Sequence record: MG049919
From: Shigella phage vB_SflS-ISF001
Reading direction: 5' to 3' (one strand)
Length of the DNA: 50,552 nucleotides
This document shows, piece by piece, positions 725 to 49,133 of this stretch. Each line of letters opens with the position of its first letter. Position 1 is the first letter of the stretch. The notes under the pieces were generated by a model. It had not been told where the DNA came from. It saw nothing but the letters and a program-made list of their open reading frames with translations, and searched no databases. The position numbers were made by a program, and so were the translations under genes.

Positions 725-744
725 ATAGCACTTTTTGTTAAAAC
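725..744 (+). promoter_or_regulatory. 20-mer motif copy (ATAGCACTTTTTGTTAAAAC)
   Basis: Followed by hairpin CCCGAT/ATCGGG and TATATT 22 bp after TTGTTA; upstream of gene 806-1021. Confidence 0.55.
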
Positions 745-805
745 ACCCGATCTCGTATCGGGTATATTTGTTTCATCGAAACGAAGCGACCCGAAGGAAA
801 GCATT

Positions 806-1021
806 ATGTCTAACATATTTTTAGTAGTTCGCGTTTACATCCACTATAACGGTACTAGCAGTGAGATTCCTACTCTTTACAGTAAAGCTGATGGATGGAC
901 CGAAGTATCAGCGGTAGCTATTGAGAAGAAGATTGCTGAGATGTACGGTGACACTTGCGAGTTTGAAGTTCGAGAATATGGAAAACTCACTAACGAGAGT
1001 TACAGGTGGGCAGATGTATAA
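806..1021 (+). CDS. hypothetical protein (71 aa)
   Basis: Internal ATG of ORF 680-1021 preceded by GGAAAG RBS; 20-mer motif at 725-744 upstream; bidirectional terminator downstream. Confidence 0.45.
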   Translation: MSNIFLVVRVYIHYNGTSSEIPTLYSKADGWTEVSAVAIEKKIAEMYGDTCEFEVREYGKLTNESYRWADV

Positions 1022-1023
1022 AA

Positions 1024-1051
1024 GAAAAGGAGGCTTAGCCTCCTTTTATTT
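1024..1051. terminator. bidirectional rho-independent terminator
   Basis: GGAGGC-TTA-GCCTCC hairpin flanked by A-run and T-run between convergent genes. Confidence 0.6.
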
Positions 1052-1439
1052 CGTCCTTACGAATTGAAAAATAAACCAGCAATAGGCCAATGAAAACGAG
1101 AGTCCATCCTGCAATTGCACCGTACCAGTTTTCTGGCTTTGTTACTGTGATGCTTTCAGCGTTAACCGTGTTAGCCTTAATGGTTGACACTTCAATTAAC
1201 TTCTTCAAGGAAGAGTCAATCTTTCCTACATTGGACTCCACAACTTTAACATCTCGCTTATCTTCGGATTTTGCGCTTACTCCTGCTAATTGCTTTGTGT
1301 TCACCTCTCCGCTTTGTGCTGTAACTTCCGGTTTAGATCCGATTAAACCGCTCAGGGCAGATGCCGTAGAGCAACCGGATAGAGAAATAACACCATCAGC
1401 CACTGTAATCGCAATGCACGTTATCTTCAGTTTCATCAT
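1035..1439 (-). CDS. unimolecular spanin (lipoprotein with C-terminal TMD)
   Basis: N-terminal signal with lipobox LSGC, C-terminal hydrophobic helix [20 protein letters not shown]; ATGA overlap with endolysin stop; architecture of T1 gp11-type u-spanin. Confidence 0.7.
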
Positions 1440-1924
1440 AATTCCTTATCGCAATACGCGGATTCTTCAGCGCGACGGTTCTTGAGTCCTCTAGACACTT
1501 CTCGCTTAAATGTAAATGGGTTGTAGTACGGTACCCATCGCCATGGCTGATTGCACGCTTCCTTGTGCTTACTCTGATTTTTTAGCTTAAGCATTGTAGA
1601 AGATCCGAACGCGCCAGTTCCAACGTTGTAAGTGAAGCTGTACAGTGACGCGCGCATCGTTACCGGAATTTCAACATTCACCTTTTTGTCAACGTATCGC
1701 TGAGCGACGCCGATTTGTCGTGTCAGCAATGCCGCGCATTCTCGCGGAGTGTATTTCTTACCTGGTATGACGTCCGGCCCGGTTATTCCGCTGCATACGG
1801 TAGGGACTCCGGCTATATCGTAATACACCTCGTATTCTATACCTTCGATTCGTTCCAGTAGGGTTGGAGTCAACGTCAAAGCGGCCCCGATCGATGCGCC
1901 TTTAACGTTATTTTTTAAGCTCAT
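1436..1924 (-). CDS. endolysin, GH24 phage lysozyme (P22 gp19-like)
   Basis: [23 protein letters not shown] and [12 protein letters not shown] match catalytic E-x8-D-x5-T region and C-lobe of phage lysozyme family; sits between holin and spanin. Confidence 0.85.
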
Positions 1925-2139
1925 TATATCCCCCTGATCTTAAGCACCTTATTTAGATCGCCATCGATTAACGCTTCCTGAATTGCCTTACTATCACGAT
2001 ACTTCCAGTATGCACCCCAGGCACCAAAAAGCAGATAGCAAATGAATGTAGCGCCAGCAATATAAAGTAGCCCTGTCGCCGCCTCTACCAACGAAGCACC
2101 GCCCGTGCTTAACGTAGCTGCTGTTAAAAATTCTATCAT
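1924..2139 (-). CDS. holin (two predicted TMDs)
   Basis: Small protein with two hydrophobic segments and charged C-terminus directly upstream of endolysin; start placed at internal ATG with GGTGAG RBS (track ORF extends to a TTG at 2202). Confidence 0.6.
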
Positions 2140-2257
2140 AATCTCACCATATATTTTTTGAACAAGTGAGTCGATTTTAACCTTCAAATTTACTTGATAC
2201 AACGCAAAAAGGCCAGCATGTAAATCATGCCAGCCTGTAAGGTGATGAATGATATTG

Positions 2258-2434
2258 TTAATCTAGCTCAATAAATTCCAGGTAATGACCGTTCAGAGGG
2301 GCTTGGATTGTTGAACCTCTACCATCGTAAATCTCAAACAATCCACCTCCGAAATCATAACCAACACTATAGATCTGATTTACGCGGAATGGAAGCGTTT
2401 TGGAATCATTTCGGATGCACTTAACTCGTTTCAT
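2258..2434 (-). CDS. hypothetical small protein (58 aa)
   Basis: Not in ORF track (<60 aa); ATG preceded by AGAGGG RBS at 7 nt; fills gap between holin and phosphoesterase gene. Confidence 0.35.
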   Translation of the reverse strand: MKRVKCIRNDSKTLPFRVNQIYSVGYDFGGGLFEIYDGRGSTIQAPLNGHYLEFIELD

Positions 2435-2497
2435 GAAATACCCTCTTTGTTTTCTATGTGGTCAATATACCCGAATCCCTTCGGGCGTTTTTATCAA

Positions 2498-3649
2498 TTA
2501 GTGCGATCCTGTCTTTTCTGGACGATAGATGAAGCGACCGTTTTCCCCAAACTGCTTATCGTAACCAATTACAGCCGCCCGGCGATATGAGCGCCACTCT
2601 CCGCGTGCTGCGTATGCGACTTTCGCGCCTAACTGACCGTGTACTTCATCAATACCAAGCGAGTGCTCAGTGATTGTCTGGTGATGCCAGTGACCAGTAT
2701 GAGTATACACATACTTGCTCTCACCGAAGTCTGATCGGAAATCTGCCACCATTGCTGCAAGTCGCGTGTCTGCCTTTTTCATAGTGTGCCCGTGAGTGTA
2801 TCCCAACAAGGTATTTGCCCAACGAGTCTTATGCAGAATCATAGGACTAACGTCAACGAATACTAGCGGCTCGTCTTCATAATATGCCGACATTGCAGCT
2901 CGCAGCCAAATCTTCCCAGACTGATCGTGGTTCCCTTCGATAACCTGGACCTCTACTTCTATGTGTTTCATAAGCATTTTGTCGATGGCTCGGCGTACCG
3001 AACGAATCCCAACATGCACTAATTTTGCGTATCGTGAATCCTGATCAAGAACGTGATCACTTGCCGGGGTAACTGCATCAAGGCCGTCAGAGTGAAGGAA
3101 GTCGTCGCCGATTAACAGAACGGCCTTCTCTGCGTTCGGTGCGATATCGATCACGTAATTAAAGAAGTCGCTAAGCACTTTTACCGCTACGTCGGTGGAA
3201 TAGTTCTCACCGCATTCATGCTTATGAGCAAGCCCGCCAATATGGAGATCGAATACCGGATAGAGTGCCAGCTTACCCATCGCTATCGTAAGCCCTTGCG
3301 AGGTTAGTAGCTCGGTTGGCTTTGCTCGTGGCAGGACTTCACAGAATGCAATACGCGCAGCTTCCATCATTGCCGCAATCTTCTCAGGGTCCTGATCGGT
3401 CTTAACCCATCGCACTACCTCGGTACCATCGCCGCGACTCATCGTTGATGTGCCTTTTACCATGAATCCTTCCGGTACGTTCTTAGCATCATGCTCGTTA
3501 CCGTGGAAGTGACCTTCTTTTGCAAGTTTGGCGTGACGCCCTTCAACTGTGCGGATGTGCATACCGTACTTTTCCGCGATCTCGCGAAGTCTTAGGCCAT
3601 TCATGCGCTCTTCGACAAGTTGTTCGGTAGTGATTTTAGCTAGTGACAT
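2498..3649 (-). CDS. HTH-domain / calcineurin-like metallophosphoesterase fusion protein
   Basis: N-terminal 50 aa helix-turn-helix-like segment (LRLREIAEKYGMHIRTVEGR); then phosphoesterase motifs DLHIGG, GDDFLHSDG, GNHD, GHTH, GHWHH; AGGA RBS. Confidence 0.7.
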   Translation of the reverse strand: MSLAKITTEQLVEERMNGLRLREIAEKYGMHIRTVEGRHAKLAKEGHFHGNEHDAKNVPEGFMVKGTSTMSRGDGTEVVRWVKTDQDPEKIAAMMEAARIAFCEVLPRAKPTELLTSQGLTIAMGKLALYPVFDLHIGGLAHKHECGENYSTDVAVKVLSDFFNYVIDIAPNAEKAVLLIGDDFLHSDGLDAVTPASDHVLDQDSRYAKLVHVGIRSVRRAIDKMLMKHIEVEVQVIEGNHDQSGKIWLRAAMSAYYEDEPLVFVDVSPMILHKTRWANTLLGYTHGHTMKKADTRLAAMVADFRSDFGESKYVYTHTGHWHHQTITEHSLGIDEVHGQLGAKVAYAARGEWRSYRRAAVIGYDKQFGENGRFIYRPEKTGSH

Positions 3650-3727: not shown

Positions 3728-4129
3728 TCATACCACAGCCTTTAACCAGAATCCTAGATCTGACCATTTAAACTCAACCAGCTTTGCGTCAACCTCAAGC
3801 ATCATACTGTTTATACCAGGTGAGTAATAACCTATATGCAACACCTGATCGATCCCTATGCTACACAGCACGTTTGCGAAGTCAGGAGGCAACCAAACAG
3901 AGAAAGGTGTTTTCTTAACCTGCTTCTTTCCGATCCATATGGTCTGGTAAGCGTCTCCGTTAATGTTTAAGCCTGGAAGGCTTGTTGTTCTTTGCTGCTT
4001 TTCGCTCTCTCTCATTTCTCTTTCCCTCTTCACGATAAAACTCAAGTGACGGAGTTGCTGGCACTCTATGCATTTTTCTCGGCATATCTTCCATAAATGA
4101 AATCTTGCCGTTTGAAATAATGCTAACAT
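3728..4129 (-). CDS. hypothetical protein (start uncertain; alternative internal start near 4018)
   Basis: ORF track; ATG at 4129 has poor RBS spacing, internal ATG at about 4018 has AGGGAAAGAG RBS; no domain recognised. Confidence 0.4.
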   Translation of the reverse strand: MLALFQTARFHLWKICREKCIECQQLRHLSFIVKREREMRESEKQQRTTSLPGLNINGDAYQTIWIGKKQVKKTPFSVWLPPDFANVLCSIGIDQVLHIGYYSPGINSMMLEVDAKLVEFKWSDLGFWLKAVV

Positions 4130-4209
4130 CCTTTATATCGAAGTATTTAGCAATTAATGCTATATCGCCTGAGATCCCGCATTCCTTTGCGTGCTCCCAC
4201 ACTTCGCGC

Positions 4210-4419: not shown

Positions 4420-4476
4420 CTTCAGATTCCTCATTTCGTTTCCATGAAATAACTATACCCGACTTTCGCCGGGTAG

Positions 4477-4495
4477 TTTTAGCAATTAGAGCTGT
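4477..4495 (-). promoter_or_regulatory. degenerate 20-mer motif copy
   Basis: Minus-strand ACAGCTCTAATTGCTAAAA; upstream of gene 4210-4419. Confidence 0.3.
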
Positions 4496-4734: not shown

Positions 4735-4741
4735 AAATTTT

Positions 4742-5455
4742 TCATTCTTTCCTCACCTTTGCTCGTTTGTTTTTCACCGAACGGCAAATGCTTGTGCTTG
4801 GGATGTAGTGAGTCTGTTGCACCACACCTTCTTTAAGTTCGCGCTTATTAAAAATTACCGAACCTTTGTTATTACCGACTACGGCCTTTCCAGTTTCAGC
4901 GGATGTGAAAGCCAGACGACCGGATCGTGCGTATTCATTGCCGTCAATAGCCTCAGTCAAATCAGCTTCAATCCAGATGATTTCAGCCGCGTGCTGTCGA
5001 ACCTCAGTATACCACCCAGTCGAGTTATCGGCAGGTAAAAGAATATCGATCCGGTTGTTGCGCTCCTTTTGCTCAATCGCTTTCTTGACGAATGTATCAG
5101 GTTGAATGTAAGGAGGGTTTAACCATACGTGCTTATTTTTACCCCACCAAGGTATTAAGCAGTTTGTTTCCTGGGAATAAAACTTCTCGCAAACTATATT
5201 TTCTACGCTTGCCGCAGCGTCGAGATCATATTTTCCGTAGGGACCCTCAAGGTATACGATAACCTCGCGTGGGGTTGACCATAAAACACGAACTGCGTCA
5301 GGTGTACTGGTTCCCTTGTATCGACGTCCTAAAATCTCTTTGCAGGTTGGCGTTTTCTGTGCTTGATAATAACCGTCTGATGCTATTGCTTCACGAGTGA
5401 ATGAGCACGCAGTTTCTGCATAGTCGATTGTTTCGATATCGTTAAAGTCTATCAT
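4742..5455 (-). CDS. DNA N6-adenine methyltransferase (phage Dam family)
   Basis: Catalytic NPPY motif (WLNPPYIQPD), size about 237 aa typical of phage Dam family; GAGAGGA RBS; 20-mer motif 50 nt upstream. Confidence 0.75.
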   Translation of the reverse strand: MIDFNDIETIDYAETACSFTREAIASDGYYQAQKTPTCKEILGRRYKGTSTPDAVRVLWSTPREVIVYLEGPYGKYDLDAAASVENIVCEKFYSQETNCLIPWWGKNKHVWLNPPYIQPDTFVKKAIEQKERNNRIDILLPADNSTGWYTEVRQHAAEIIWIEADLTEAIDGNEYARSGRLAFTSAETGKAVVGNNKGSVIFNKRELKEGVVQQTHYIPSTSICRSVKNKRAKVRKE

Positions 5456-5506
5456 TTTTAATCCTCTCGTTTCGGTGAGATAATAATGCCAGATTCCATT
5501 CCGGCG

Positions 5507-5526
5507 GTTTTAACAAAAAGTGCTAT
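5507..5526 (-). promoter_or_regulatory. 20-mer motif copy upstream of Dam methylase gene
   Basis: Minus-strand ATAGCACTTTTTGTTAAAAC; CATTAT 22 bp downstream. Confidence 0.55.
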
Positions 5527-7967: not shown

Positions 7968-7996
7968 TTGAATCGTTGTAACGTTTACGCTATAAT
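7968..7996 (+). promoter_or_regulatory. sigma70-type promoter for HTH regulator gene
   Basis: TTGAAT - 17 bp - TATAAT, about 50 nt upstream of ATG 8048; overlaps divergent helicase promoter region. Confidence 0.55.
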
Positions 7997-8014
7997 ACAC
8001 GGCATACAGTAAAC

Positions 8015-8035
8015 GTTTTTAGCAAAAAGTGCTAT
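8015..8035 (-). promoter_or_regulatory. 20-mer motif copy upstream of helicase gene
   Basis: Minus-strand ATAGCACTTTTTGCTAAAAAC; TATTAT 22 bp downstream inside hairpin AACGTTTAC/GTAAACGTT. Confidence 0.55.
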
Positions 8036-8047: not shown

Positions 8048-8500
8048 ATGAATATTCAACGTATCGCAGAGTCAACTGGTGAAATCGATACACGTCACAA
8101 CAATGGTAACAACGGAACACGACGCGGTAAAGATAAAATGCCTCGACTGCGCTGCGGCTTCTATATTCATATAGAAGAAACACGCGCCGGATTGCCAGCG
8201 CGACTTGATGCGCTTATCGTATATTATGGTGGCCCTGCGGCCTCCGCAAAAGCTCTAAAGGTTAGCATTCAGACGGTGCAAGGCTGGAAAGTACGCAACA
8301 TGATTTCGTGGCAAGCTGCTGAAGCTGCGCATCGTGCTTCCCGACGACAGGGGTGTAAAGGGTTTCGTGCCGCATGGTTGCGATTCGCCCTGAAGTTTGA
8401 CGGTAACGGCAAGTGCCTTGAGAAGCGATGCAAGATCAAGAAATTTATGCGCGTCGTGAAGAAGGAAGATATCGGGACGACCAATAGCATTTTTAGTTAA
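8048..8500 (+). CDS. HTH DNA-binding regulator (Cro/YdaS-like)
   Basis: HTH segment GGPAASAKALKVSIQTVQGWK; AGGAGAA RBS; canonical sigma70 promoter upstream; rho-independent terminator downstream. Confidence 0.55.
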   Translation: MNIQRIAESTGEIDTRHNNGNNGTRRGKDKMPRLRCGFYIHIEETRAGLPARLDALIVYYGGPAASAKALKVSIQTVQGWKVRNMISWQAAEAAHRASRRQGCKGFRAAWLRFALKFDGNGKCLEKRCKIKKFMRVVKKEDIGTTNSIFS

Positions 8501-8507
8501 AACAAAC

Positions 8508-8549
8508 GACGCGTAGCGGGTTAACATCCTTCTACGCGTTTTTTATTTT
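8508..8549 (+). terminator. rho-independent terminator after HTH regulator gene
   Basis: CGCGTAG...CTACGCG stem followed by TTTTTTATTTT. Confidence 0.55.
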
Positions 8550-8561: not shown

Positions 8562-9497
8562 GTGAACGAAGAATTTATGATGTATCAGAAAGAGGACGTT
8601 TTGCCGTACATGAAGGGGTTATGGCGCGAGGTTTTCCAGTCAGTCTGCGGGTTGCAGAATGAGGTGTTTAATAAGAAGCCCCAACCTTGCCCCAACTGCG
8701 GCGGTAAAGACCGCTTTCGATGGACCGTTAACTTAAACACTCCGGGCGACGGCGGCGCGATCTGCAACTCATGCGCGAACGACTCCGGGATCGGGTGGCT
8801 AATGAAATTAACTGGTATGCCGTTCAGTGAATGTATAAACATCCTGGGGAGATTTCTCGGAAAAGTTCCGCCGGAATATATCGTCAAGGCGAACAAGAAA
8901 GCGCGCCGGACTCCGGTAGGTGGCGTCAATGTCATGATGGCAGATCATGAAGCGGTGATGAAAGTCAAGGAGCGCACAGAGAAGCGCGTAAACACACCAC
9001 TAAGCATGTTTGAGTGGCTACCTACTGAATCATTCGACGTTGGCGTAAAACGTCGCGATGATGCCGGGGAGAGCGTATTTCACACTATCCCGTGTCAACT
9101 TGTGCATGAGGTCGGGCTTGATGACGAGTTTTGCAATATTTTGATTATTGACGAGGAAGAAAGGGAGTCATTTTACGCTAAGAAATACACAAGTTGCTCG
9201 GTTGCCGAGACTGGTAAAACTGAGAAGGCGATCTACTTGTGTCTAAACTGGATTGTCGCTCAGCACATAGCCTTTCACACAAAACAGGAAGTGTGGGCCT
9301 GCTACACTCCTGAAAACCTAGAAATGGTTGCGTACAGATACAAGGGAGAGCAGGAGGTAAGGGTTGCGTGCGAACCATCTGATAAAGAAACTTTATACAA
9401 GGCAGACGACAGACAATTAAAAATAATCATCCCGAATCCTGGAGGATTCCGCTCAGGAATGCAACCCATATATTTCTTAGTAAGTGACCTACTCTAA
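8562..9497 (+). CDS. putative DNA primase (N-terminal primase zinc-ribbon)
   Basis: CPNCGGKDRFRW...CNSC matches primase-helicase zinc-binding ribbon signature; GGAG RBS; followed by terminator. Confidence 0.5.
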   Translation: MNEEFMMYQKEDVLPYMKGLWREVFQSVCGLQNEVFNKKPQPCPNCGGKDRFRWTVNLNTPGDGGAICNSCANDSGIGWLMKLTGMPFSECINILGRFLGKVPPEYIVKANKKARRTPVGGVNVMMADHEAVMKVKERTEKRVNTPLSMFEWLPTESFDVGVKRRDDAGESVFHTIPCQLVHEVGLDDEFCNILIIDEEERESFYAKKYTSCSVAETGKTEKAIYLCLNWIVAQHIAFHTKQEVWACYTPENLEMVAYRYKGEQEVRVACEPSDKETLYKADDRQLKIIIPNPGGFRSGMQPIYFLVSDLL

Positions 9498-9520
9498 CCG
9501 CCTTCGGGCGGTTTTTTATT
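9496..9520 (+). terminator. rho-independent terminator after primase-like gene
   Basis: CCGCC-TTCG-GGCGG followed by TTTTTTATT. Confidence 0.65.
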
Positions 9521-9526
9521 GCCCAT

Positions 9527-9555
9527 TGCAAGGCAGGTGGCACAATGATAAAATC
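9527..9555 (+). promoter_or_regulatory. sigma70-type promoter for tail fibre gene
   Basis: TTGCAA - 17 bp - TAAAAT just downstream of terminator. Confidence 0.5.
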
Positions 9556-9559
9556 TGTG

Positions 9560-9579
9560 CTTAGCAATTCGTGCTATTT
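9560..9579 (+). promoter_or_regulatory. 20-mer motif copy in leader of tail fibre gene (inverted orientation)
   Basis: CTTAGCAATTCGTGCTATTT between sigma70-like promoter and RBS. Confidence 0.5.
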
Positions 9580-9597: not shown

Positions 9598-11382
9598 ATG
9601 GCTTTATATAGACGCGGCAATGGATCAATGGATGCAGACGGCACGGTTCACGGAACCGATACAAAATCGATAGATCTACTTGCTCTGATTCGAGTCGGTG
9701 CAACTATCGTATTCCTGGAGCAACCAATTAAGCTGGCGGTGATTAGCGATATCGTTAGCGACACAGAGTTAAAGGCTATCTCTACGGATGGTCAGACTGC
9801 CGCTGACGGTAAGTATGTGAACCAGCCTAACGATTCGTTGACTGGTAACGGATTAGCTCTAAACGATGCTGTGAAGCTTCGATACTATCAAAGCAAAGAG
9901 ACTGAGATCGCGGCAGCTAAAGATCTGATAAATCAGCTTGATATGAATAAACTTGAGCAAATAGTTGCTGATGTGAATCAGGCGAAATCTGATTCTCAAG
10001 CTGCGCAAAATCAGGCTGAATTAGCGCGTGACGCAGCCAACGCTGCACGCGATGAAACTAACTCAATCAAGAATCAGACGCAACAGATTGTTGACGGTGC
10101 TGTCGGTAGCATCAATGCGGCTAAGGATCAGGCTATAACCGATGTGCTGCCAATAGTAACTTCATCCATCACTCACATTGACTCAGAAGAAGCGGAGGTG
10201 AATCGGGGAATTAATGACGCAAAAGGCGATCTGTCAGGTTACGTTAATGACGCTCAGACGGCAGCACAAACGGCGACCTCTGCAAAAAACGACGCTCAGG
10301 CAGCGCGTGACGATGCGGTAAGCTCAAAAGATGCGGCTGCGGTAAGTGCTCAAGAAGCAAAAGACGCAGCTAACAGCATCAATGCTGAAAATCTTTTAAC
10401 TAAGGATGGCAATCTAGCTGGTCTTGAGGATAAAAAAGAGTCAAGAAAAAATATTGGGTTAGGTGAAAATGATGCTGTTAACTTTCTTACTATTAACACC
10501 ACTGGCGCTATAGGTGCAGGAAGGAATTCATGGGACGGTTCTAGCTGGGGTAGTCAGTCCATATTGTCATCATTGATGATTATGTCACCTGATGGAATAT
10601 CTACGCCAGGTATTTACGTCAGAAAAGAACGTAGCGATAATGGTTATGCTGGGACTTTATTATTTTATGAAGGGGCAAACTACTTCGAGACTAACAATAG
10701 ATTTAGAGCCAATCAGTTTTTATGCCAGAAAACATCTATGGGTTACAACCAGATGTGGTCTGCTTCATGCTTCCAGGGTAATTCTTACACCGCCGATAGT
10801 GGCGCTGAAAACTATCAATCACTTGTTGCTGGATCGTGTGATATAAGGGGGCAAGGGTATGTTGGCGGCGTAGCATTTGGCATGATGACTACGGGTAATG
10901 CTGAATGGCCCAGAGCACAAATATCAGTAGGCACTCAAGATAGGGATGTAGCAGGCAATATTGGTCTGCAAATGCATTTCAGGTTTATGGCTTCAGGGCA
11001 AATATCTTACGCTGGACCGCAAGGGGCTGGAAGTTTCCAACAGGTTCCGGCATCTGACAAAATTAAAACGCTCAGCATAAAGGATGATGAATTAAACACC
11101 GGATTCATCAACATAAAGTCAATGAGATTTAGGAACTTTATATTTAACGACGATGAGCAAGAAAGGGTAAGGCGAGGTGTTATAGCTCAGGAGATAGAAG
11201 AGATCGACAATCTATATGTTAAGAGAAAGGTGTATGTGAGCCACGAGCAAATCGCGCGAAAAGATGCAAGACTTGAGCTTGATACAACTCCTTTATTGCT
11301 TGACACTATGAGAGCTTTACAGGATACAATAAAGATAGTTGAAGAGTTACAAGAAGAGATAAAAATGTTGAAGTCCAAATGA
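9598..11382 (+). CDS. tail fibre protein with C-terminal intramolecular chaperone (S74-like) domain
   Basis: Long Ala/Gln-rich coiled-coil repeats, then C-terminal RFRNFIFNDDEQERVRRGVIAQEIEE block typical of autoproteolytic chaperone domains of tail fibres; AAGGAG RBS. Confidence 0.7.
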   Translation: MALYRRGNGSMDADGTVHGTDTKSIDLLALIRVGATIVFLEQPIKLAVISDIVSDTELKAISTDGQTAADGKYVNQPNDSLTGNGLALNDAVKLRYYQSKETEIAAAKDLINQLDMNKLEQIVADVNQAKSDSQAAQNQAELARDAANAARDETNSIKNQTQQIVDGAVGSINAAKDQAITDVLPIVTSSITHIDSEEAEVNRGINDAKGDLSGYVNDAQTAAQTATSAKNDAQAARDDAVSSKDAAAVSAQEAKDAANSINAENLLTKDGNLAGLEDKKESRKNIGLGENDAVNFLTINTTGAIGAGRNSWDGSSWGSQSILSSLMIMSPDGISTPGIYVRKERSDNGYAGTLLFYEGANYFETNNRFRANQFLCQKTSMGYNQMWSASCFQGNSYTADSGAENYQSLVAGSCDIRGQGYVGGVAFGMMTTGNAEWPRAQISVGTQDRDVAGNIGLQMHFRFMASGQISYAGPQGAGSFQQVPASDKIKTLSIKDDELNTGFINIKSMRFRNFIFNDDEQERVRRGVIAQEIEEIDNLYVKRKVYVSHEQIARKDARLELDTTPLLLDTMRALQDTIKIVEELQEEIKMLKSK

Positions 11383-12517: not shown

Positions 12518-12573
12518 CTTAACTTCTCCTGATTGGTGTATGAGGTGCATTATAACACCTCATTAATTATTTG

Positions 12574-12595
12574 TTTAGCTATTTGTGCCGTTTAC
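12574..12595 (-). promoter_or_regulatory. degenerate 20-mer motif copy upstream of annealing-protein gene
   Basis: Plus-strand TTTAGCTATTTGTGCCGTTTAC; TATAAT in hairpin TGAGGTG/CACCTCA downstream on minus strand. Confidence 0.4.
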
Positions 12596-18851: not shown

Positions 18852-18898
18852 GATGTTTACCTTTTTGTGCTATTTATCGGTGGACTCATTATACAGGC

Positions 18899-18923
18899 GA
18901 AAAAAAACCCGCGCAAGGCGGGT
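18899..18923 (-). terminator. intrinsic terminator-like hairpin between I and J
   Basis: Plus AAAAAAAACCCGCGCAAGGCGGG = minus-strand hairpin + U8; identical to element at 21080-21101. Confidence 0.5.
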
Positions 18924-25042: not shown

Positions 25043-25062
25043 ATGGCACTTTTTGTTAAAAG
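25043..25062 (-). promoter_or_regulatory. 20-mer motif copy immediately upstream of G gene RBS
   Basis: Plus-strand ATGGCACTTTTTGTTAAAAG; inverted relative to early cassettes. Confidence 0.45.
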
Positions 25063-25102
25063 AGAATAGTGCAAACTTGATACGATGATTTTACAGAAAT
25101 GA

Positions 25103-25123
25103 ATAAGGGGGCGCAAGCCCCCT
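25103..25123 (-). terminator. hairpin downstream of major tail gene (weak terminator/attenuator)
   Basis: GGGGGC-GCAA-GCCCCC; minus strand followed by TTATTCATTT. Confidence 0.4.
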
Positions 25124-28774: not shown

Positions 28775-28804
28775 TAAAAAAAGCCGTGATTATGTTCACG
28801 GCTT
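28775..28804 (-). terminator. intrinsic terminator-like hairpin between decoration and capsid genes
   Basis: Plus AAAAAAAGCCGTGATTATGTTCACGGCT = minus hairpin + U7. Confidence 0.5.
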
Positions 28805-28809: not shown

Positions 28810-28828
28810 ATAGCACTTTTTGTTAAAG
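28810..28828 (-). promoter_or_regulatory. 20-mer motif copy upstream of major capsid gene
   Basis: Plus-strand ATAGCACTTTTTGTTAAAG; followed on minus strand by hairpin plus U-run and RBS. Confidence 0.45.
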
Positions 28829-28846
28829 CGTCAAAGTATTTTTGTG

Positions 28847-35513: not shown

Positions 35514-35534
35514 CGTTTAACATTTAGTGCTATT
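35514..35534 (-). promoter_or_regulatory. 20-mer motif copy upstream of TerS
   Basis: Minus-strand ATAGCACTAAATGTTAAAC about 15 nt upstream of RBS, after a terminator hairpin. Confidence 0.45.
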
Positions 35535-35552
35535 TTACCATATTGCAGGCAT

Positions 35553-35574
35553 AAAAAAACCCGCCGTAGCGGGT
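35553..35574 (-). terminator. intrinsic terminator between early gene block and TerS
   Basis: Plus AAAAAAACCCGCCGTAGCGGG = minus hairpin + U7, followed by 20-mer motif and TerS RBS. Confidence 0.55.
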
Positions 35575-37288: not shown

Positions 37289-37344
37289 TTCGATTTTCTC
37301 TCTTCGTTGTCGATGAGGTGACTATATCAAATCACCCCACCGAC

Positions 37345-37364
37345 GTTTTAGCAATTAGTGCTAT
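37345..37364 (-). promoter_or_regulatory. early promoter cassette (20-mer + 22 bp + TATAGT in hairpin)
   Basis: Minus-strand ATAGCACTAATTGCTAAAAC; TATAGT within GGTGA/TCACC hairpin; leader CATCGACAACGAA. Confidence 0.6.
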
Positions 37365-38575: not shown

Positions 38576-38640
38576 GATTTATTCCTCTGATTGGTTGCTT
38601 AACTCAACGAAGGGCATTCTAACAAATGCCCTTGAGCAAG

Positions 38641-38660
38641 TTTTAGCAATTCGTGCTATT
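38641..38660 (-). promoter_or_regulatory. early promoter cassette
   Basis: Minus-strand AATAGCACGAATTGCTAAAA; TAGAAT 22 bp downstream in AGGGCATT/AATGCCCT hairpin. Confidence 0.6.
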
Positions 38661-39105: not shown

Positions 39106-39160
39106 GAGTGCTTCCTCGTTTGTTGGTGTAGGGGAATCATAGCGCATTCCCCTTGATAGG

Positions 39161-39180
39161 TTTTAGCAATTCGTGCTATT
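39161..39180 (-). promoter_or_regulatory. early promoter cassette
   Basis: Minus-strand AATAGCACGAATTGCTAAAA; TATGAT 22 bp downstream in AGGGGAAT/ATTCCCCT hairpin. Confidence 0.6.
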
Positions 39181-40460: not shown

Positions 40461-40523
40461 GATGCCTCACTGATTGGTTGCCATTCTTCAATAAGGCCAC
40501 TATATCAAATGGCCTTGCGGAAG

Positions 40524-40541
40524 GTTTAGCAATTCGTGCTA
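40524..40541 (-). promoter_or_regulatory. early promoter cassette
   Basis: Minus-strand ATAGCACGAATTGCTAAA; TATAGT 22 bp downstream in GGCCA/TGGCC hairpin. Confidence 0.6.
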
Positions 40542-40687
40542 TCGTTTAACGCACATAGTTTTTACTTCTTGTCCGAACGGTTTGTTTTCTGCAATCACCT
40601 CCCGACCTCTTTCGCATCGTTGCTGACTTTCCATGTATACGTGATCCGGCCCGGTGCTCATCAAGATAATCAAGACCCATGCAGCCA

Positions 40688-41194: not shown

Positions 41195-41249
41195 AATGAT
41201 TTCCTCTTAGTGGTTGATATGGGGATTGTACCAGTCAGGCCAAATCCCC

Positions 41250-41269
41250 TTTTAACAATTCGTGCTTAG
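41250..41269 (-). promoter_or_regulatory. early promoter cassette
   Basis: Minus-strand CTAAGCACGAATTGTTAAAA; TACAAT 22 bp downstream in GGGGATT/AATCCCC hairpin; upstream gene stop TAA embedded. Confidence 0.6.
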
Positions 41270-41754: not shown

Positions 41755-41809
41755 GTTATCGTCCTCGTTCGTTGTCGATGTGGTTACTATATCGCAACCA
41801 CATGATCGC

Positions 41810-41831
41810 GTTTTAACAAAAAGTGCTATTC
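41810..41831 (-). promoter_or_regulatory. early promoter cassette
   Basis: Minus-strand ATAGCACTTTTTGTTAAAAC; TATAGT in GTGGTT/AACCAC hairpin; leader CATCGACAACGAA. Confidence 0.6.
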
Positions 41832-42768: not shown

Positions 42769-42829
42769 GGTTAATCCTCTGATTGGTATCTCGTTTCGAT
42801 GGGGTAACTATAGCAAGATGCCCCGATCC

Positions 42830-42851
42830 GGTTTTAACAATTCGTGCTATT
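42830..42851 (-). promoter_or_regulatory. early promoter cassette
   Basis: Minus-strand ATAGCACGAATTGTTAAAAC; TATAGT 22 bp downstream; leader ATCGAAACGAGA. Confidence 0.55.
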
Positions 42852-43514: not shown

Positions 43515-43569
43515 CTTTGTTTCCTCATTCGTTGTCGATGGGATAACTATACCAGGTTATCCCGATCCG

Positions 43570-43591
43570 GTTTTAACAAAAAGTGCTATTC
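43570..43591 (-). promoter_or_regulatory. early promoter cassette
   Basis: Minus-strand ATAGCACTTTTTGTTAAAAC; TATAGT in GGGATAAC/GTTATCCC hairpin; leader CATCGACAACGAA. Confidence 0.6.
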
Positions 43592-44503: not shown

Positions 44504-44920
44504 AGGTTTCTCCTTAGTTTCAATATACACAATGATTAACGCGTAACAGCGCGTCTCTAATTGCAGTGTTACACGACGACCCGCCTGCGTCAAGGCTTGC
44601 AGGTCGATTTTAAGTGTGGTTAATCGTGTTAATCGTGTTAATCGCTTTCCCCATATAAATATGAGCCGATAAAACTACTGTATATATAAACATGAATACA
44701 ATAATCAGAGCATCCAACGATTAACATAGTAGACACGCTATACAACCATATTACAGATAATAGTATCTATATATATAAATAAAAAAAATACTTATATATT
44801 ATATATATACATATAGATATATGTATATTATAAGGCGTAATTTGGTGTAATTTTGTCTACTATTGAGATTCAGGCAAATTGTAGACAACTGTTAACACAC
44901 GGTCAAGTGTAACCGTAATC

Positions 44921-44940
44921 GATAGCACGTTTTGCTAAAA
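44921..44940 (+). promoter_or_regulatory. 20-mer motif copy inside control region B (no obvious -10 or gene)
   Basis: ATAGCACGTTTTGCTAAAAA; about 265 nt upstream of first rightward gene. Confidence 0.4.
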
Positions 44941-45125
44941 ATGGAGATAACCACCAGGCGAACCGGGTAACACCAGATCCTCCCTCTCACAATCATTGCA
45001 TTCTAAGCAACAAATAAACCAACTGTTGCACACCGTGCAATAATCACGTTTCATCATTCGTAATCAATAACAATCAAGGTTATTACACCTATTCCAGTAT
45101 TGATGGAATAATGAGCAATTATTGG

Positions 45126-45145
45126 AATAGCATTTTTTGCTAACG
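45126..45145 (+). promoter_or_regulatory. early promoter cassette for rightward unit
   Basis: ATAGCATTTTTTGCTAACG; tandem GGTCGGGTA x2 then GTATAG 22 bp downstream; leader AACCAATCAGAAGAGGAAG. Confidence 0.55.
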
Positions 45146-45205
45146 ACTCGGTCGGGTAGGTCGGGTATAGTCCGGCCCATAAACCAATCAGAAGAGGAAG
45201 CAACA

Positions 45206-45910
45206 ATGAAATTAATCTGGTCACTATACGACGGTTCTGGTCTTGCAAATCTTGAGCTAGCAAAGCAAGGCCATAAGGTGATGTGCTTCAACTGGGACGG
45301 AGCCGATCACGGAGTTTACGCAAAGTACAACGCCAGGGTTGAGCGTCATAACATTGAGTATGTGAACGTCTTTATTAATGAGAAGTTCGAACGTGATGCT
45401 ACCGCGCCTGTGTATGGCAAGCCTGATTTAATCAGGGCATTTCCTCAATGCACTGACCTGGCTGTTAGTGGCGCTGGTCACTTCGTAAGAAAGCGTGAGC
45501 GAGATCCGTTATTCCAGGAGAAGGCTGTTGCTACCGCCGGGATTGCTGCGAATATTGGCGACTCTCTTGGCGTGACTTACATATTTGAGAATCCGGTGAG
45601 TGTCCTGTCATCTGCCTGGAGAAAACCAAATCACTCCTTCAACCCCTGGGAGTATGGCGGCTATCTTCCTGAGAATGACGCACACCCCAAGTTCCCTATG
45701 TATATTGCGCCGCGCGATCGTTATCCGAAGAAAACTTGTCTTTGGACCTCGGACGATTTTGTCACACCGGAGAAAAAAAAAGTAAGCCTGCCTGACGGGT
45801 ACTCTACGCATCACAGCAAGCAGGGCAGCAAGTCGGTAAAGACGAAGCTGATACGATCCCTGTCGCAGCGTGGATTTTTCCCGGCGATCGCAAATAGCAC
45901 TTTTTGTTAA
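45206..45910 (+). CDS. putative DNA methyltransferase (weak C5-cytosine-like motifs)
   Basis: LYDGSG (motif I-like), FPQCTDLAVSGAG (PC-motif-like), IFENPV (ENV-like); ATG with AGAGGAAG RBS (track ORF from 45137); assignment tentative. Confidence 0.4.
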   Translation: MKLIWSLYDGSGLANLELAKQGHKVMCFNWDGADHGVYAKYNARVERHNIEYVNVFINEKFERDATAPVYGKPDLIRAFPQCTDLAVSGAGHFVRKRERDPLFQEKAVATAGIAANIGDSLGVTYIFENPVSVLSSAWRKPNHSFNPWEYGGYLPENDAHPKFPMYIAPRDRYPKKTCLWTSDDFVTPEKKKVSLPDGYSTHHSKQGSKSVKTKLIRSLSQRGFFPAIANSTFC

Positions 45911-45913
45911 AAC
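45894..45913 (+). promoter_or_regulatory. early promoter cassette
   Basis: ATAGCACTTTTTGTTAAAAC overlapping last codons and stop of methyltransferase-like gene; CATAAT 22 bp downstream. Confidence 0.55.
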
Positions 45914-45970
45914 TCGATCGGTGCGATTTGGCATAATTACCTCATCGAAACGAGATTGAGGAAAAACAAA

Positions 45971-46171: not shown

Positions 46172-46357
46172 ATGAAAACGAAATTAGTGAACAAATCAGA
46201 AATCAAGAACGGCGATACTCTGATTGTCAACGGAGAGTTAAGGACGGTTGATAAGCAGTCAATAGTCAGAGATGAATTTTTGGGTCTGTTGTTGTTCGCC
46301 GACTCATATTGCCTAGGATACTTAAAAGTCGAGCTTGTTGTGGATGTAAAATTCTAA
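46172..46357 (+). CDS. hypothetical protein (61 aa)
   Basis: ORF track; stop immediately followed by 20-mer motif. Confidence 0.4.
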   Translation: MKTKLVNKSEIKNGDTLIVNGELRTVDKQSIVRDEFLGLLLFADSYCLGYLKVELVVDVKF

Positions 46358-46377
46358 ATAGCACTTTTTGTTAAAAC
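46358..46377 (+). promoter_or_regulatory. early promoter cassette
   Basis: ATAGCACTTTTTGTTAAAAC directly after stop codon; TATAAC 22 bp downstream; leader AACCAATCAGGAG. Confidence 0.55.
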
Positions 46378-46432
46378 ACGCCCGGTTAATCAGGGTATAA
46401 CTCCAACATAAACCAATCAGGAGAATGACTAG

Positions 46433-46813: not shown

Positions 46814-46983
46814 TCGTATATATCGTTATGGGCGGCGAAACATATGAGGGTCAATATCGAGATACTGTTCACGTTGATTTTAAGAAGGCGAAGCAGTACA
46901 CAAACAGAAACAAGCAACAGATTCGCGGGGGATTTAGCATGTACGACTTAACGACGAATGTTGTGAAGGAAATTACCGAATAG
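46810..46983 (+). CDS. hypothetical small protein (57 aa)
   Basis: Not in ORF track; ATG overlapping upstream stop (ATGA), GGAGGAAAG RBS 6 nt upstream. Confidence 0.45.
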   Translation: MIVYIVMGGETYEGQYRDTVHVDFKKAKQYTNRNKQQIRGGFSMYDLTTNVVKEITE

Positions 46984-46998
46984 CACTTTTTGCTAAAC
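46979..46998 (+). promoter_or_regulatory. early promoter cassette
   Basis: ATAGCACTTTTTGCTAAACG (perfect TAGCA-N5-TGCTA); TATAGT in GGGATGACT/AGTCATCCC hairpin. Confidence 0.6.
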
Positions 46999-47054
46999 GC
47001 TCATCCGGGATGACTGGTATAGTCATCCCATCAACAGCAAGCGAGGAAAGAGTT

Positions 47055-47619: not shown

Positions 47620-47636
47620 CTGGTTAAGGGGGAGCA

Positions 47637-47957
47637 ATGAAACACACTTACAAAATCAGAACGAAGTACCCGAAGTTTAACGGAACCACGGATGCGGCAC
47701 TGAATAACGCCGCGGCAATTCACGAAAAAAAGATCACGGAGCCCGTGAAGGCGGTGGTAGGTAGATTCTACGGGATCAATGCCGACATTGCCGACAGCAA
47801 GCGACTGTTCAAATACGTTCCAGGTCTACCATATGGCAGGATGATTAGTATCAAGCATGAAAAAGTATTGGTTCGAATCGGATCCCTAAGCTATGATGAG
47901 TTCGATCATAAACTTTGTCTGCTGACGGCGTATCAAACTTGGGACGGTAAAAAATGA
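47637..47957 (+). CDS. hypothetical protein (106 aa)
   Basis: ORF track; AAGGGGGAG RBS. Confidence 0.5.
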   Translation: MKHTYKIRTKYPKFNGTTDAALNNAAAIHEKKITEPVKAVVGRFYGINADIADSKRLFKYVPGLPYGRMISIKHEKVLVRIGSLSYDEFDHKLCLLTAYQTWDGKK

Positions 47958-48097
47958 TTTATATTCACACTTTCTATACTGGCAAATTTAACAGCGTAAA
48001 AAATGTTCGCGTTTACGATAGCCACCAAACAGCAATGATGCAGAGAGTAGTTCTAGGCGGCACAATCAAAGAGTGCAAAGTAATTTCTGAGTACTGA
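47954..48097 (+). CDS. hypothetical small protein (47 aa)
   Basis: Not in ORF track; ATGA overlap with upstream stop; stop followed by 20-mer motif. Confidence 0.3.
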   Translation: MIYIHTFYTGKFNSVKNVRVYDSHQTAMMQRVVLGGTIKECKVISEY

Positions 48098-48116
48098 TAG
48101 CACGAATAGCTAAAGA
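48098..48116 (+). promoter_or_regulatory. early promoter cassette
   Basis: ATAGCACGAATAGCTAAAG; TATATT in GGGAGTA/TACTCCC hairpin. Confidence 0.55.
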
Positions 48117-48173
48117 CAATCAGCAGGGAGTAAGGTATATTACTCCCACACCAAACAAACAAAGGAATTAAAA

Positions 48174-48398
48174 ATGAGCATTAAAGTTGAGATTATCATC
48201 AAGCTCCTGAACGCGTTAGGCCGTGTAGTTATCAAATTGGATAAGTCTTCCGGTTTTATTTCAATGACGGTAACTAAGACTCGTAACGGTAATAACCTTA
48301 TCGGCACCACGCCAGGCTCCCGCTTAATAAATGCAACAGATGCTGATGCGCGCGCTACGCTTGAGGCTAACACAATTCACATTAATTCATGGAGTTAA
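48174..48398 (+). CDS. hypothetical protein (74 aa)
   Basis: ORF track; AAAGGAA RBS; promoter cassette upstream. Confidence 0.5.
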   Translation: MSIKVEIIIKLLNALGRVVIKLDKSSGFISMTVTKTRNGNNLIGTTPGSRLINATDADARATLEANTIHINSWS

Positions 48399-48401
48399 TT
48401 G

Positions 48402-48614
48402 ATGGAACGGGATAATTTCTCCACTCGTTATAAAGCCGCTCTTGATCGGGGGCTTAGTGCGGAATGGTGTATCAAGGTTGCATATAAAGAAATTACGCAA
48501 CACGTAGAGCTAGGGAATATGGATATGGACGCAGAAAGTGAATATAATCCCGACTCCGAGGTGCCAGACGATGATGTTGGTGATAATGACGACGACGATT
48601 ATATTCCCTGGTAA
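48402..48614 (+). CDS. small acidic protein with SSB-tail-like C-terminus (70 aa)
   Basis: ATG with GGAG RBS (track ORF from TTG 48399); C-terminus PDDDVGDNDDDDYIPW resembles SSB C-terminal DDDIPF. Confidence 0.5.
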   Translation: MERDNFSTRYKAALDRGLSAEWCIKVAYKEITQHVELGNMDMDAESEYNPDSEVPDDDVGDNDDDDYIPW

Positions 48615-48631
48615 ATAGCACGATTTGTTAA
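48615..48631 (+). promoter_or_regulatory. early promoter cassette
   Basis: ATAGCACGATTTGTTAA; TAAAGT 22 bp downstream in AAGGTCA/TGACCTT hairpin; leader AACCAATCAGGAG. Confidence 0.55.
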
Positions 48632-48694
48632 TATTGCCGTAAGGTCATTTGATAAAGTGACCTTATTCAAGATAACCAATCAGGAGTTAACGAA

Positions 48695-49057
48695 ATGAAA
48701 TCCATCAAACTGAAATGCACTTACGCAAATAAAAACTTACCATTTGAAGTAAACAACCTATACAAGGGTCGTGAGCGCTATGATGGCACTCGCGAAGTAA
48801 AATTAAAATGCGGCAAGTATTTAAAACTTGAAAAGCATGATGTTTTACAGATTCACGGATCTGATGAAATCTTCTTCGCGAAGTTCTTTGAGTGGACACG
48901 GAAGACGCTCAAGTGTACCGGGCTTGACCATCGCAACCCAATGAAAAAATCATTCAAAGTTGGCAAGCGTTACCAGGTTGAAAGCGGTCGCGCTCTCGGT
49001 GGCGTAGCTGGTTACATCTTTGATGAAGATGGTTGTCGCTCGCCCCTATTTATCTAA
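48695..49057 (+). CDS. hypothetical protein (120 aa)
   Basis: ORF track; AACCAATCAGGAG leader; promoter cassette upstream. Confidence 0.5.
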   Translation: MKSIKLKCTYANKNLPFEVNNLYKGRERYDGTREVKLKCGKYLKLEKHDVLQIHGSDEIFFAKFFEWTRKTLKCTGLDHRNPMKKSFKVGKRYQVESGRALGGVAGYIFDEDGCRSPLFI

Positions 49058-49114
49058 GAGGTTGGTTTTAGTATCGGAGACGGCACAACCTTTGAGGCCA
49101 AATACTTATAACCA

Positions 49115-49133
49115 ATAGCACTTTTTGCAAAAC
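49115..49133 (+). promoter_or_regulatory. early promoter cassette
   Basis: ATAGCACTTTTTGCAAAAC; TATCAT 22 bp downstream in GGCGGTGTA/TACACCGTC hairpin. Confidence 0.55.

Follow-up and report, generated by a model that had tools for sequence, protein, structure and literature searches.

A 21-nt repeat, aaATAGCACnnnTTGnTAAAA, was described in the 2024 re-annotation of phage TLS by Misra, Kropinski and co-workers, with 21 copies, 18 of them intergenic, lying in the direction of transcription approximately 76 nt before start codons (PMC11447400). The authors also found the repeat in T1, Rtp and Rogue1, put forward a stoperator, an enhancer site or an UP element as ideas for its role, and placed its function among their listed open questions (PMC11447400). 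We analysed a repeated 20-nt box in the DNA of Shigella phage vB_SflS-ISF001 (sequence record MG049919; 50,552 nt, the whole of this stretch being referred to as the window), which is a complete or nearly complete T1-like phage genome (Tunavirus, Drexlerviridae). The ISF001 box is the same element as the TLS repeat, and the repeat itself is already published, but the fixed -10 element, the hairpin and the marbox match reported below are absent from the TLS paper and are new here. We propose, with a probability of roughly two in three, that the boxes belong to class II marbox promoters which would be served by the host activators Rob, MarA or SoxS (RamA in Klebsiella and Salmonella), and this reading would give a concrete answer to the function left open for the TLS repeat.

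Marboxes are asymmetric sites bound by monomers of the AraC-family activators MarA, SoxS and Rob. In the structure of Rob and RNA polymerase on the Escherichia coli micF promoter, the A site GCAC has its G at -47 and its A at -45, the B site CAAA overlaps the -35 region, and Rob occludes sigma region 4 from the -35 (PMC9178005); the micF soxbox is centred at -41.5 (PMC9638938). A second described system is the PeSL cassette of T4-type phages, which runs from a stop codon to an ATG and holds a sigma-70 promoter; a GGGG..CCCC stem-loop separates the elements of this promoter or covers its -10. A role as terminator or attenuator was demonstrated for the stem-loops, and one as recombination linker for the cassettes (Arbiol et al. 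2010, PMC2839356).

The box was searched for on both strands with a position weight matrix built iteratively from its copies (cut-off at least 15 bits), with Markov shuffles as the control, and a gene map was made by transferring onto the window 76 genes of Shigella phage vB_SsoS-ISF002 (Tunavirus, Drexlerviridae), which is collinear with the ISF001 genome at 94.6% identity. This gave 30 sites in the window, compared to a mean of 0.2 and a maximum of 1 in the shuffles, and the perfect inverted repeat TAGCA-N5-TGCTA occurred 10 times where 0.03 occurrences were expected. The original prediction for this DNA, of at least 25 intergenic copies far above chance with a 5-N5-5 inverted repeat as their core, perfect in several of them, was borne out: 29 of the 30 boxes are intergenic or lie on gene ends, the other (5116-5135) being within the dam gene. 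Its consensus, ATAGCAC-N4-TTGYTAAAAC, pointed to a real element but was one base too long and gave no hits even at 2 mismatches; the real repeat unit, A-TAGCAC-N3-TTGYTAAAAC, corresponds to the 5-N5-5 core with its AAAAC flank. Similarly, the perfect palindrome offered as an example exists, at 46981-46995 and not at 46982-46996. Presence in related phages, raised there as a question, was found in T1 (25 copies), TLS (23), Rtp (21) and Klebsiella phage Sin4 (15), and in an independent set from IMG/VR comprising 521 boxes across 80 Drexlerviridae loci. Twenty-three of the window boxes are co-oriented with the downstream gene, at 60-86 nt (usually 73-76 nt) upstream of its start codon, and in at least 7 of these cassettes the TAG of the box doubles as the stop codon of the upstream gene, so that the cassette occupies the whole intergenic gap.

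These 23 promoter-type boxes were each followed by a TAnnnT hexamer starting 36-38 nt past the T of TAGCA (37 nt in 19 of the 23), with a conserved A 7 nt after it. A TAnnnT (or CAnnnT) at 36-38 nt was found for 25 of 30 boxes in the window, 20 of 25 in T1, 18 of 23 in TLS, 18 of 21 in Rtp and 15 of 15 in Sin4, and the IMG/VR set had a -10 at that distance in 470 of 521 boxes (90%), with offset peaks at 37 (254 copies) and 36 (130 copies). In a logo of 82 unique cassettes, ATAGCAC-KWW-TTG-Y-TAAAAC from -50 to -31 was followed by an uninformative spacer, G at -14 (84%; TG in 50%), TAtaaT (its A at -11, its T at -7), C-rich sequence over -4 to -1, an A as +1 (89%) and then TCGAAAC or an A-rich leader. 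The logo reads AAAACn from -35 to -30, and thus holds no -35 hexamer; TTGYTA within the box was considered for this part and rejected, because its 22-bp distance from the -10 exceeds the reach of sigma region 4. The rigid distance from box to TAnnnT, together with the conserved A, indicates that the box forms the upstream half of a -35-less sigma-70 promoter. That the box may be a promoter element, as had also been suggested, is therefore well supported. The conserved cassette leader is CATCGAAACGA or AACCAATCAGGAG. Two conserved leader motifs, CATCGAAACGA(A/G) and AACCAATCAG(A/G)GG, were seen immediately 3' of the predicted +1 and running into the Shine-Dalgarno sequence (for example at 43539-43525, 42800-42780 and 46408-46425), for which a translational enhancer or a start-site context are possibilities. 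Ordinary PeSLs of T4-like phages have the first of these motifs as their leader too.

The logo also bears on whether the box is recognised by host RNA polymerase itself, as an UP-like or other upstream element of constitutive extended -10 promoters that need no activator. G is frequent at -14 (76-84% of cassettes, with TG in 28-50%), the centre of the box is A/T-rich, and a role like that of an UP element was among the suggestions of the TLS authors (PMC11447400). UP elements are, however, A/T tracts between -40 and -60 that are recognised through the minor groove and require no G or C, whereas it is G and C that are invariant in the box (GCAC and, in TTG, the G; about 2 bits each), and TTGYTA at its distance from the -10 is beyond sigma region 4. 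We rejected an UP element on these grounds and consider direct reading by the polymerase unlikely. A sigma-54 promoter (TGGCAC-N5-TTGCW, with invariant GG and GC 10 bases apart) was likewise rejected, as the box has AG and not GG, its spacing is 2 bp shorter and a sigma-70 -10 follows.

The published MarA search consensus, GCANNWWNTGNNAAA (PMC12052159), had 21 zero-mismatch sites in the window where 0.77 were expected, and all 21 were boxes. Per-position frequencies, taken from 315 cassettes of the IMG/VR set, showed T (72%) or C (22%) at box position 2, A or T at positions 9-10 (100%), G at position 13 (99%) and C (55%) or T (42%) at position 14. The 20-bp marbox consensus was reportedly given by Martin et al. 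in 1999 as AYnGCACnnWnnRYYAAAYn. The variable positions of the box coincide with the degenerate positions of that consensus, position 19 excepted. The marbox of the E. coli mar promoter, GATTTAGCAAAACGTGGCAT, matched the box at 44922-44941 in reverse complement at 16 of 20 positions, 14 of them consecutive.

The geometry of the cassettes was compared with that of the E. coli K-12 micF promoter, read from the genome. In micF, ACAGCACTGAATGTCAAAAC is followed by 18 nt, TAGAAT, 7 nt and the annotated micF 5' end; in the phage cassette, ATAGCACTTTTTGTTAAAAC is followed by 18 nt, TATAGT, 6 nt and an A, such that frame, orientation and gap are as in micF and the two boxes are identical at 14-15 of 20 positions. 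The gap from box to -10 is 18 bp (17-19) in the phage, 18 in micF and 18-19 in fumC; the geometry of the mdaB and inaA promoters was not clear enough for use in this comparison. GCAC falls at about -47 to -44 in the phage cassettes, TAAA(A) at about -36 to -32 over the -35 region, and the box centre at about -40.5. The -10 lies beyond the AAAAC end of the box in 23 of 30 window copies and in 90% of the 521 copies of relatives, which is the forward orientation (GCAC distal, AAA proximal) also seen in micF. The cassettes thus share with the class II promoters of E. coli (micF, fumC, lpxC P2, lpxL P1 and rfaY P1) an asymmetric 20-bp GCAC/(Y)AAA box in forward orientation that overlaps the -35, a gap of 18(-19) bp, a sigma-70 -10 and a poor or absent -35, with none usable. 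They differ in being present at 15-30 copies per 50-kb genome, in having near-perfect consensus boxes, as putative MarA/SoxS/Rob sites, where the host sites are degenerate, and in their fused stop codon, hairpin and conserved leader.

The cassette is not confined to T1-like phages. When the 20-nt box was searched together with 10 nt of flank (30 nt in all), 1007 phage records matched, and 8 of 40 sampled rows were T4-like genomes of 176-179 kb from phages of Klebsiella, Raoultella, Buttiauxella, Citrobacter and Enterobacter. A complete T1-type cassette with box, hairpin over the -10, CATCGAAAC leader, Shine-Dalgarno sequence and ATG was found in both Klebsiella phage Earwig_ER32 (2503-2578 of the stretch read) and Cronobacter phage SemperBestia (2500-2584), which are T4-like Straboviridae of 172-179 kb. 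The two cassettes differ only at low-information positions and by a compensatory change in the hairpin (GGGGTA/TACCCC compared to GGGATA/TATCCC). Neighbouring PeSLs in these genomes have an ordinary TTGAC -35, yet the same leader (Earwig_ER32 2801-2859; SemperBestia 2073-2146), and the CATCGAAACGAAAC leader, like the T1-type cassette, is present in T4-like phages. In SemperBestia, the gene preceding the cassette is homologous to the window gene at 46172-46354 (40% identity, E = 7e-8), and the presence of a homologous gene before the cassette both there and in the window (cassette at 46358) points to exchange of gene and cassette together between phage families.

The middle promoters of T4 itself replace the -35 with a TGCT-containing box, (a/t)(a/t)(a/t)TGCTTtA, whose centre is at -30, separated from the -10 by 11-13 bp, and which is read by an activator, MotA, with AsiA also needed. 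An unrecognised phage activator or sigma-appropriation system of this type might read the ISF001 box, in which case the likeness to a marbox would be convergent, and many early proteins of the phage are indeed without a detectable family. A MotA-dependent middle promoter was rejected, as 20 bp separate the end of TGCTAAA in the box from the -10 and the box is centred at about -40.5, and no homologues of MotA or AsiA are evident in ISF001. Any such phage-encoded system would also have to account for the same cassette being a unit in unrelated phage families, and convergence on the sequence, the orientation and the exact spacing of a host site is improbable; we regard it as quite unlikely.

An operator for a dimeric helix-turn-helix (HTH) protein had originally been proposed, with the product of the gene at 8048-8500 (+ strand) as the candidate binder. 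This gene encodes a Cro-like, single-HTH 'transcriptional regulator' of the T1 gp23 family (PHROG 2856) with a weak P22_Cro hit; its AF2 model is poor (pLDDT 54), with only a Cro-like four-helix core (residues 48-100) usable, and in Foldseek this model resembled Cro proteins with E-values that were not significant. As a dimer on the box such a protein could activate from a site near -41, by analogy with lambda PRM, where CI at OR2 (centre -42) contacts sigma region 4, or could repress from a site past the start. This would suit the inverted-repeat core and its 10 perfect copies, the conservation at positions that the marbox consensus leaves free, and the several late-gene copies that lie, operator-like, at or past predicted start sites. 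Boxes also flank the regulator gene, an arrangement kept in T1, TLS, Rtp and Sin4, and one of them (8016-8035) is in its 5' leader, where it occupies about +17 to +31 with respect to a good sigma-70 promoter (TTGAAT-17-TATAAT, 7968-7996, + strand).

Conservation within the box was nevertheless asymmetric. The G at offset 2 of the core is 100% conserved while its mirror position is C in 55-56% and T in 39-42%, the C following TAGCA (offset 5) is kept in 89-95% of copies but mirrored by T, and the flanks (5' A, 3' AAAAC) show no mirror symmetry, so the half-sites do not have the two-fold symmetric conservation of lambda OR2, which is a site for a dimer; the phage box is, in addition, oriented. 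Nor did the box and the regulator gene go together: a search for homologues of the 8048-8500 protein matched 823 phage records, of which 45 of 45 sampled rows were 44-78 kb genomes and none T4-like, in contrast to 8 of 40 rows for the box, and the box occurs in about 200 T4-like phage records without a homologue of the regulator. The converse, a regulator without the box, was not encountered, as the search for relatives of the regulator gave only Drexlerviridae contigs of approximately 50 kb, all box-bearing. Most early promoters, including those nearest the genome end, would under an operator reading require a phage protein that has not yet been made, whereas a monomeric site explains the whole box base for base. 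The 8048-8500 protein has a single HTH and not the double HTH that a marbox needs, and no evidence ties it specifically to the box. The operator and its proposed binder are thus not supported as the explanation of the box, and we consider them unlikely. As boxes flank the regulator gene, a secondary role at the partly palindromic core, such as shut-off of early promoters, could still be envisaged, and the regulator might turn box promoters off in this way later in infection. The Lrp consensus, YAGHAWATTWTDCTR, matched the palindromic core at 11-13 of 15 positions and was rejected, as it leaves the asymmetry, the orientation and the fixed distance to the -10 unexplained. At 7968-7997, two -10 elements overlap face to face, TATAAT of the regulator promoter (7991-7996, + strand) and TATTAT of the box-dependent helicase promoter (7992-7997, - strand), and these two promoters probably compete.

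To return to the class II marbox reading, we infer both the identity of the binding protein and the dependence on an activator from sequence and geometry. The hosts of box-bearing phages, among the matches listed, were Klebsiella, Escherichia, Shigella, Enterobacter, Citrobacter, Salmonella, Cronobacter and Pantoea, all Enterobacterales, with T1-like 'Campylobacter' phages and one UNVERIFIED_ORG record as exceptions, both doubtful; the enterobacterial hosts named carry marA, soxS, rob or ramA. Approximately 20 GenBank 'Campylobacter phage' records (47-50 kb; for example A16a, C4 and A134) among the matches listed have T1-type boxes and the T1 regulator, and look like Drexlerviridae of enterobacteria with a doubtful host label. 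Pfam gave no AraC/XylS-type or HTH_18 domain for 30 phage proteins with lengths of 74 aa or more, 26 of which reach 95 aa or more, and tblastn with a MarA sequence found no homologue in five Drexlerviridae genomes. Rob is expressed constitutively and at a high level (PMC9178005). The lack of an AraC-type hit among these phage proteins, the cassettes in T4-like phages, the Enterobacterales hosts and the constitutive Rob together favour a host activator.

Upon phage entry, host RNA polymerase and Rob would thus be expected to start most early and replication transcription units at the cassettes, with the activator taking the place of the contact between sigma region 4 and the -35, as it does in the Rob and SoxS complexes on micF. 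Rob, being constitutively present, could act from the outset, and MarA, SoxS or RamA could serve once induced. The wider proposal, that Drexlerviridae (T1, TLS, Rtp and Klebsiella Webervirus) wire most of their early and replication units to host MarA, SoxS, Rob or RamA through consensus class II marboxes, in a cassette exchanged with T4-like phages, we put at slightly better than even.

Several observations weigh against host activators as readers of the box. At position 19 the marbox consensus has Y but 57-73% of copies have A, and positions 3 (A) and 11 (T), which that consensus leaves free, are strongly conserved too; this conservation may reflect recombination that homogenises the copies, or a second reader, for example the Cro-like regulator bound to the partial palindrome. 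For class II marboxes, Martin et al. 1999 reportedly gave a gap of 18-19 bp as a rule, which was checked here on micF and fumC only, and 7 of the 30 copies lack class II geometry. The frequent G at -14 (76-84%; TG in 28-50%) could give a basal activity independent of any activator. In the absence of stress, the bulk of cellular Rob is considered to be in a sequestered, inactive form, and for a fast lytic phage to depend on it would be surprising. A literature search found no report of rob, marA or soxS mattering for T1-like phages. The same search found no paper tying marboxes to these phages and no maps of transcription starts in Drexlerviridae.

Many cassettes contain a copy-specific inverted repeat of 6-9 bp, either within the spacer or bridging the -10 with arms at about -24 to -17 and -8 to -1 (for example in the cassettes at 43539-43589, 41779-41829 and 46980-47030). 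Arms pairing over at least 6 bp were found in 37% of comparisons within a cassette and 3.2% between cassettes (z = 13.6; z = 12.7 in the IMG/VR set), and orthologues showed compensatory hairpin changes. In the GenBank record of T1, several spacer hairpins carry an annotation as rho-independent terminators. By analogy with PeSLs, the repeat probably attenuates read-through or acts as a terminator. The cassettes indeed have in common with PeSLs a sigma-70-type promoter, a stem-loop, a Shine-Dalgarno sequence, small early ORFans nearby and exchange between genomes; the difference is that classical PeSLs have an ordinary TTGAC -35 and an A/T-rich upstream region, and T1-type cassettes have the marbox in their place.

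That these copy-specific repeats are under selection, and that some are annotated as terminators in T1, would also fit an element acting at the RNA level, with TGnTAAAAC as an extended -10 followed by a leader hairpin, or with box and hairpin together as processing or terminator signals. TTGYTAAAAC does resemble TGnTAnnnn, and the G-Y position permits a G-U pair in a 5-bp RNA stem. TAAAAC is, however, without the essential T at -7, and at a fixed distance downstream there is a conserved A start with, before it, a far better -10 (TAnnnT, which does have T at -7 and also A at -11). The hairpins occur in only about 15-55% of cassettes, which makes them accessory, and Rfam gave no family match in the window. 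We therefore consider an RNA-level element very unlikely.

If host activators do drive these promoters, early expression of the phages would respond to bile salts, salicylate, oxidants and antibiotics, would be altered in multidrug-resistant marR, ramR or soxR mutants, and would tie phage infectivity to the antibiotic-stress state of the host. Such a link would matter because Tunavirinae and Webervirus are common in therapeutic cocktails against E. coli and Klebsiella, in which marR and ramR mutants are frequent. To our knowledge, this would be the first lytic phage family with the Mar/Sox/Rob machinery as a general early-promoter system. It would also explain the scarcity of canonical sigma-70 promoters found in these genomes, improve the annotation of gene starts and transcription units, and provide a set of compact, strong, activator-responsive promoter cassettes.

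The 23 promoter-type cassettes are given here by position. The first (725-775, + strand; box 725-744, ATAGCACTTTTTGTTAAAAC) has a spacer hairpin CCCGA..TCGGG, its -10 TATATT at 763-768 and a predicted +1 at 775, and precedes an open reading frame (ORF) of 71 aa (806-1021, + strand) that is unannotated in the closest record, as is the 58-aa ORF (2434-2258, - strand) following the cassette at 2457-2507 (- strand; box 2488-2507, ATCGCACTAATTGATAAAAA; spacer hairpin; -10 TATATT 2464-2469). The cassette at 4113-4163 (- strand; box 4144-4163 with a perfect core at 4148-4162) has a weak -10, TAGCAT at 4120-4125 or CATTAT, and an uncertain start codon, and that at 4445-4495 (- strand) combines a degenerate box (4476-4495, ACAGCTCTAATTGCTAAAAC) with a terminator-like spacer hairpin and -10 TATAGT at 4452-4457 before a gene starting at 4434. 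The dam gene (start 5455) is driven by the cassette at 5476-5526 (- strand; box 5507-5526; -10 CATTAT 5483-5488, or TATTAT), in which the TAG at 5523-5525 (- strand) ends the upstream VRR-NUC gene. On either side of the regulator gene lie the cassette of the helicase operon (7985-8035, - strand; box 8016-8035 with perfect core 8020-8034; -10 TATTAT 7992-7997) and that upstream of the primase gene (8484-8534, + strand), whose box (8484-8503) overlaps the 3' end of 8048-8500. The latter box is followed on the + strand by an intrinsic terminator, ACGCGTAG..CTACGCGT plus a T run, with TAACAT in its loop at the -10 offset. The Erf-like recombination gene (start 12517, - strand) follows the cassette at 12542-12591 (- strand), where the box (12572-12591, ACGGCACAAATAGCTAAACA) is degenerate and an 8-bp inverted repeat bridges the -10 TATAAT (12549-12554).

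Eight further cassettes on the - strand lie between 37314 and 43589. A stop TAG for the upstream gene is part of the box in five of them, namely those at 37314-37364 (box 37345-37364, TAG 37361-37363; -10 TATAGT 37321-37326; gene start 37288), 40492-40542 (box 40523-40542, TAG 40539-40541; 7-bp repeat bridging the -10 TATAGT 40499-40504; gene start 40460), 41779-41829 (box 41810-41829, TAG 41826-41828; -10 TATAGT 41786-41791; gene start 41754), 42800-42850 (box 42831-42850, TAG 42847-42849; -10 TATAGT 42807-42812; gene start 42768) and 43539-43589 (box 43570-43589, TAG 43586-43588; -10 TATAGT 43546-43551; +1 A at 43539; gene start 43514). The 57-bp stretch at the 40492-40542 cassette was 93-98% identical in Klebsiella Webervirus phages. 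The 8-bp inverted repeat ATGTGGTT/AACCACAT bridges the -10 of the 41779-41829 cassette, the T1 orthologue having a compensatory T-A to G-C change, and another of 8 bp, GGGATAAC/GTTATCCC, bridges that of the 43539-43589 cassette. The remaining three are at 38609-38659 (box 38640-38659; 9-bp repeat bridging the -10 TAGAAT 38616-38621; PNK-like phosphatase gene, start 38575), 39129-39179 (box 39160-39179; 8-bp repeat bridging the -10 TATGAT 39136-39141; gene start 39105) and 41218-41268 (box 41249-41268, a TAAGCAC variant; -10 TACAAT 41225-41230; gene start 41194).

The last seven cassettes are on the + strand. The DNA methylase gene (start 45206) follows the cassette at 45127-45178 (box 45127-45146 with perfect core 45128-45142; -10 TATAGT 45166-45171), and the 3' end of this gene contains the box (45894-45913) of the next, at 45894-45944 (-10 CATAAT 45932-45937; gene start 45971). 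The -10 of the cassette at 46358-46408 (box 46358-46377; gene start 46433) is TATAAC (46396-46401), with no T at -7. The cassette at 46980-47030 (box 46980-46999, perfect core 46981-46995, stop TAG 46981-46983; -10 TATAGT 47018-47023; gene start 47055) has a 9-bp inverted repeat, GGGATGACT/AGTCATCCC, bridging its -10. Repeats of 8 bp bridge the -10 in the cassettes at 48097-48148 (box 48097-48116; TATATT 48136-48141; gene start 48174) and 48615-48665 (box 48615-48634; TAAAGT 48653-48658; gene start 48695), and one of 7 bp does so at 49115-49165 (box 49115-49134; TATCAT 49153-49158). From the position of this last cassette, the true start of the DUF3987 helicase-like gene would be GTG at 49185 or ATG at 49188 and not TTG at 49125.

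The seven other copies include the site inside the dam methyltransferase gene (5116-5135, - strand; TAAGCACGTATGGTTAAACC), which is kept in T1 and TLS as coding sequence and is probably not a regular cassette. Five adjoin late or tail genes. That boxes occur at TerS, MCP, G-like and tail genes had been stated before and was confirmed, except that the MCP and G-like copies proved to be on the strand opposite to the genes. The copy at 28810-28829 (+ strand) lies between the upstream gene and the terminator before the MCP gene (start 28754), and that at 25043-25062 (+ strand; ATGGCACTTTTTGTTAAAAG) between a terminator and the G-like tail chaperone gene (start 25021). TACGAT at the -10 offset of the latter (25081-25086, + strand) makes an antisense promoter possible there; no gene starts on the + strand within 20 kb downstream. 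The TerS copy (35514-35533, - strand) is 33 nt before the TerS ATG (35499), directly past a terminator, and the copy at 18854-18873 (- strand), which follows a TATAAT hexamer and contains the ribosome-binding site, lies 21 nt upstream of the tail tip (J-like) ATG; these distances leave no room for a promoter downstream of either box. The copy at 9558-9577 (- strand; perfect core 9562-9576) is reversed with respect to the tail-fibre-like gene at 9598-11382 and covers the predicted start site of its promoter (TTGCAA-17-TAAAAT, 9526-9554). The TerS, tail tip and tail-fibre-like copies are thus at or just past the predicted starts of sigma-70-type promoters, and the positions of the non-promoter copies could suit repression or timing, by host activators or by the Cro-like regulator on the partly palindromic core.

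Late and tail genes were seen to have a strong intrinsic terminator followed by a short promoter-like stretch (28775-28798, 25100-25118, 35545-35570, 18895-18915 and 9496-9520), a layout like the 'transcripton' proposed for T1, with the box, in either orientation, between the terminator or promoter and the ribosome-binding site. The seventh copy (44922-44941, + strand; ATAGCACGTTTTGCTAAAAA) is an orphan: it lies in non-coding DNA at the left end, lacks a -10 at the usual distance and is kept in T1. This long non-coding region also contains, at about 44617-44643 and upstream of the first leftward gene (start 44503; its promoter is without a box), two perfect tandem copies of a 9-mer, GTGTTAATC (GATTAACAC on the - strand), at 44626 and 44635, preceded by the variant GTGGTTAATC; the repeat may be a protein-binding or packaging-related site.

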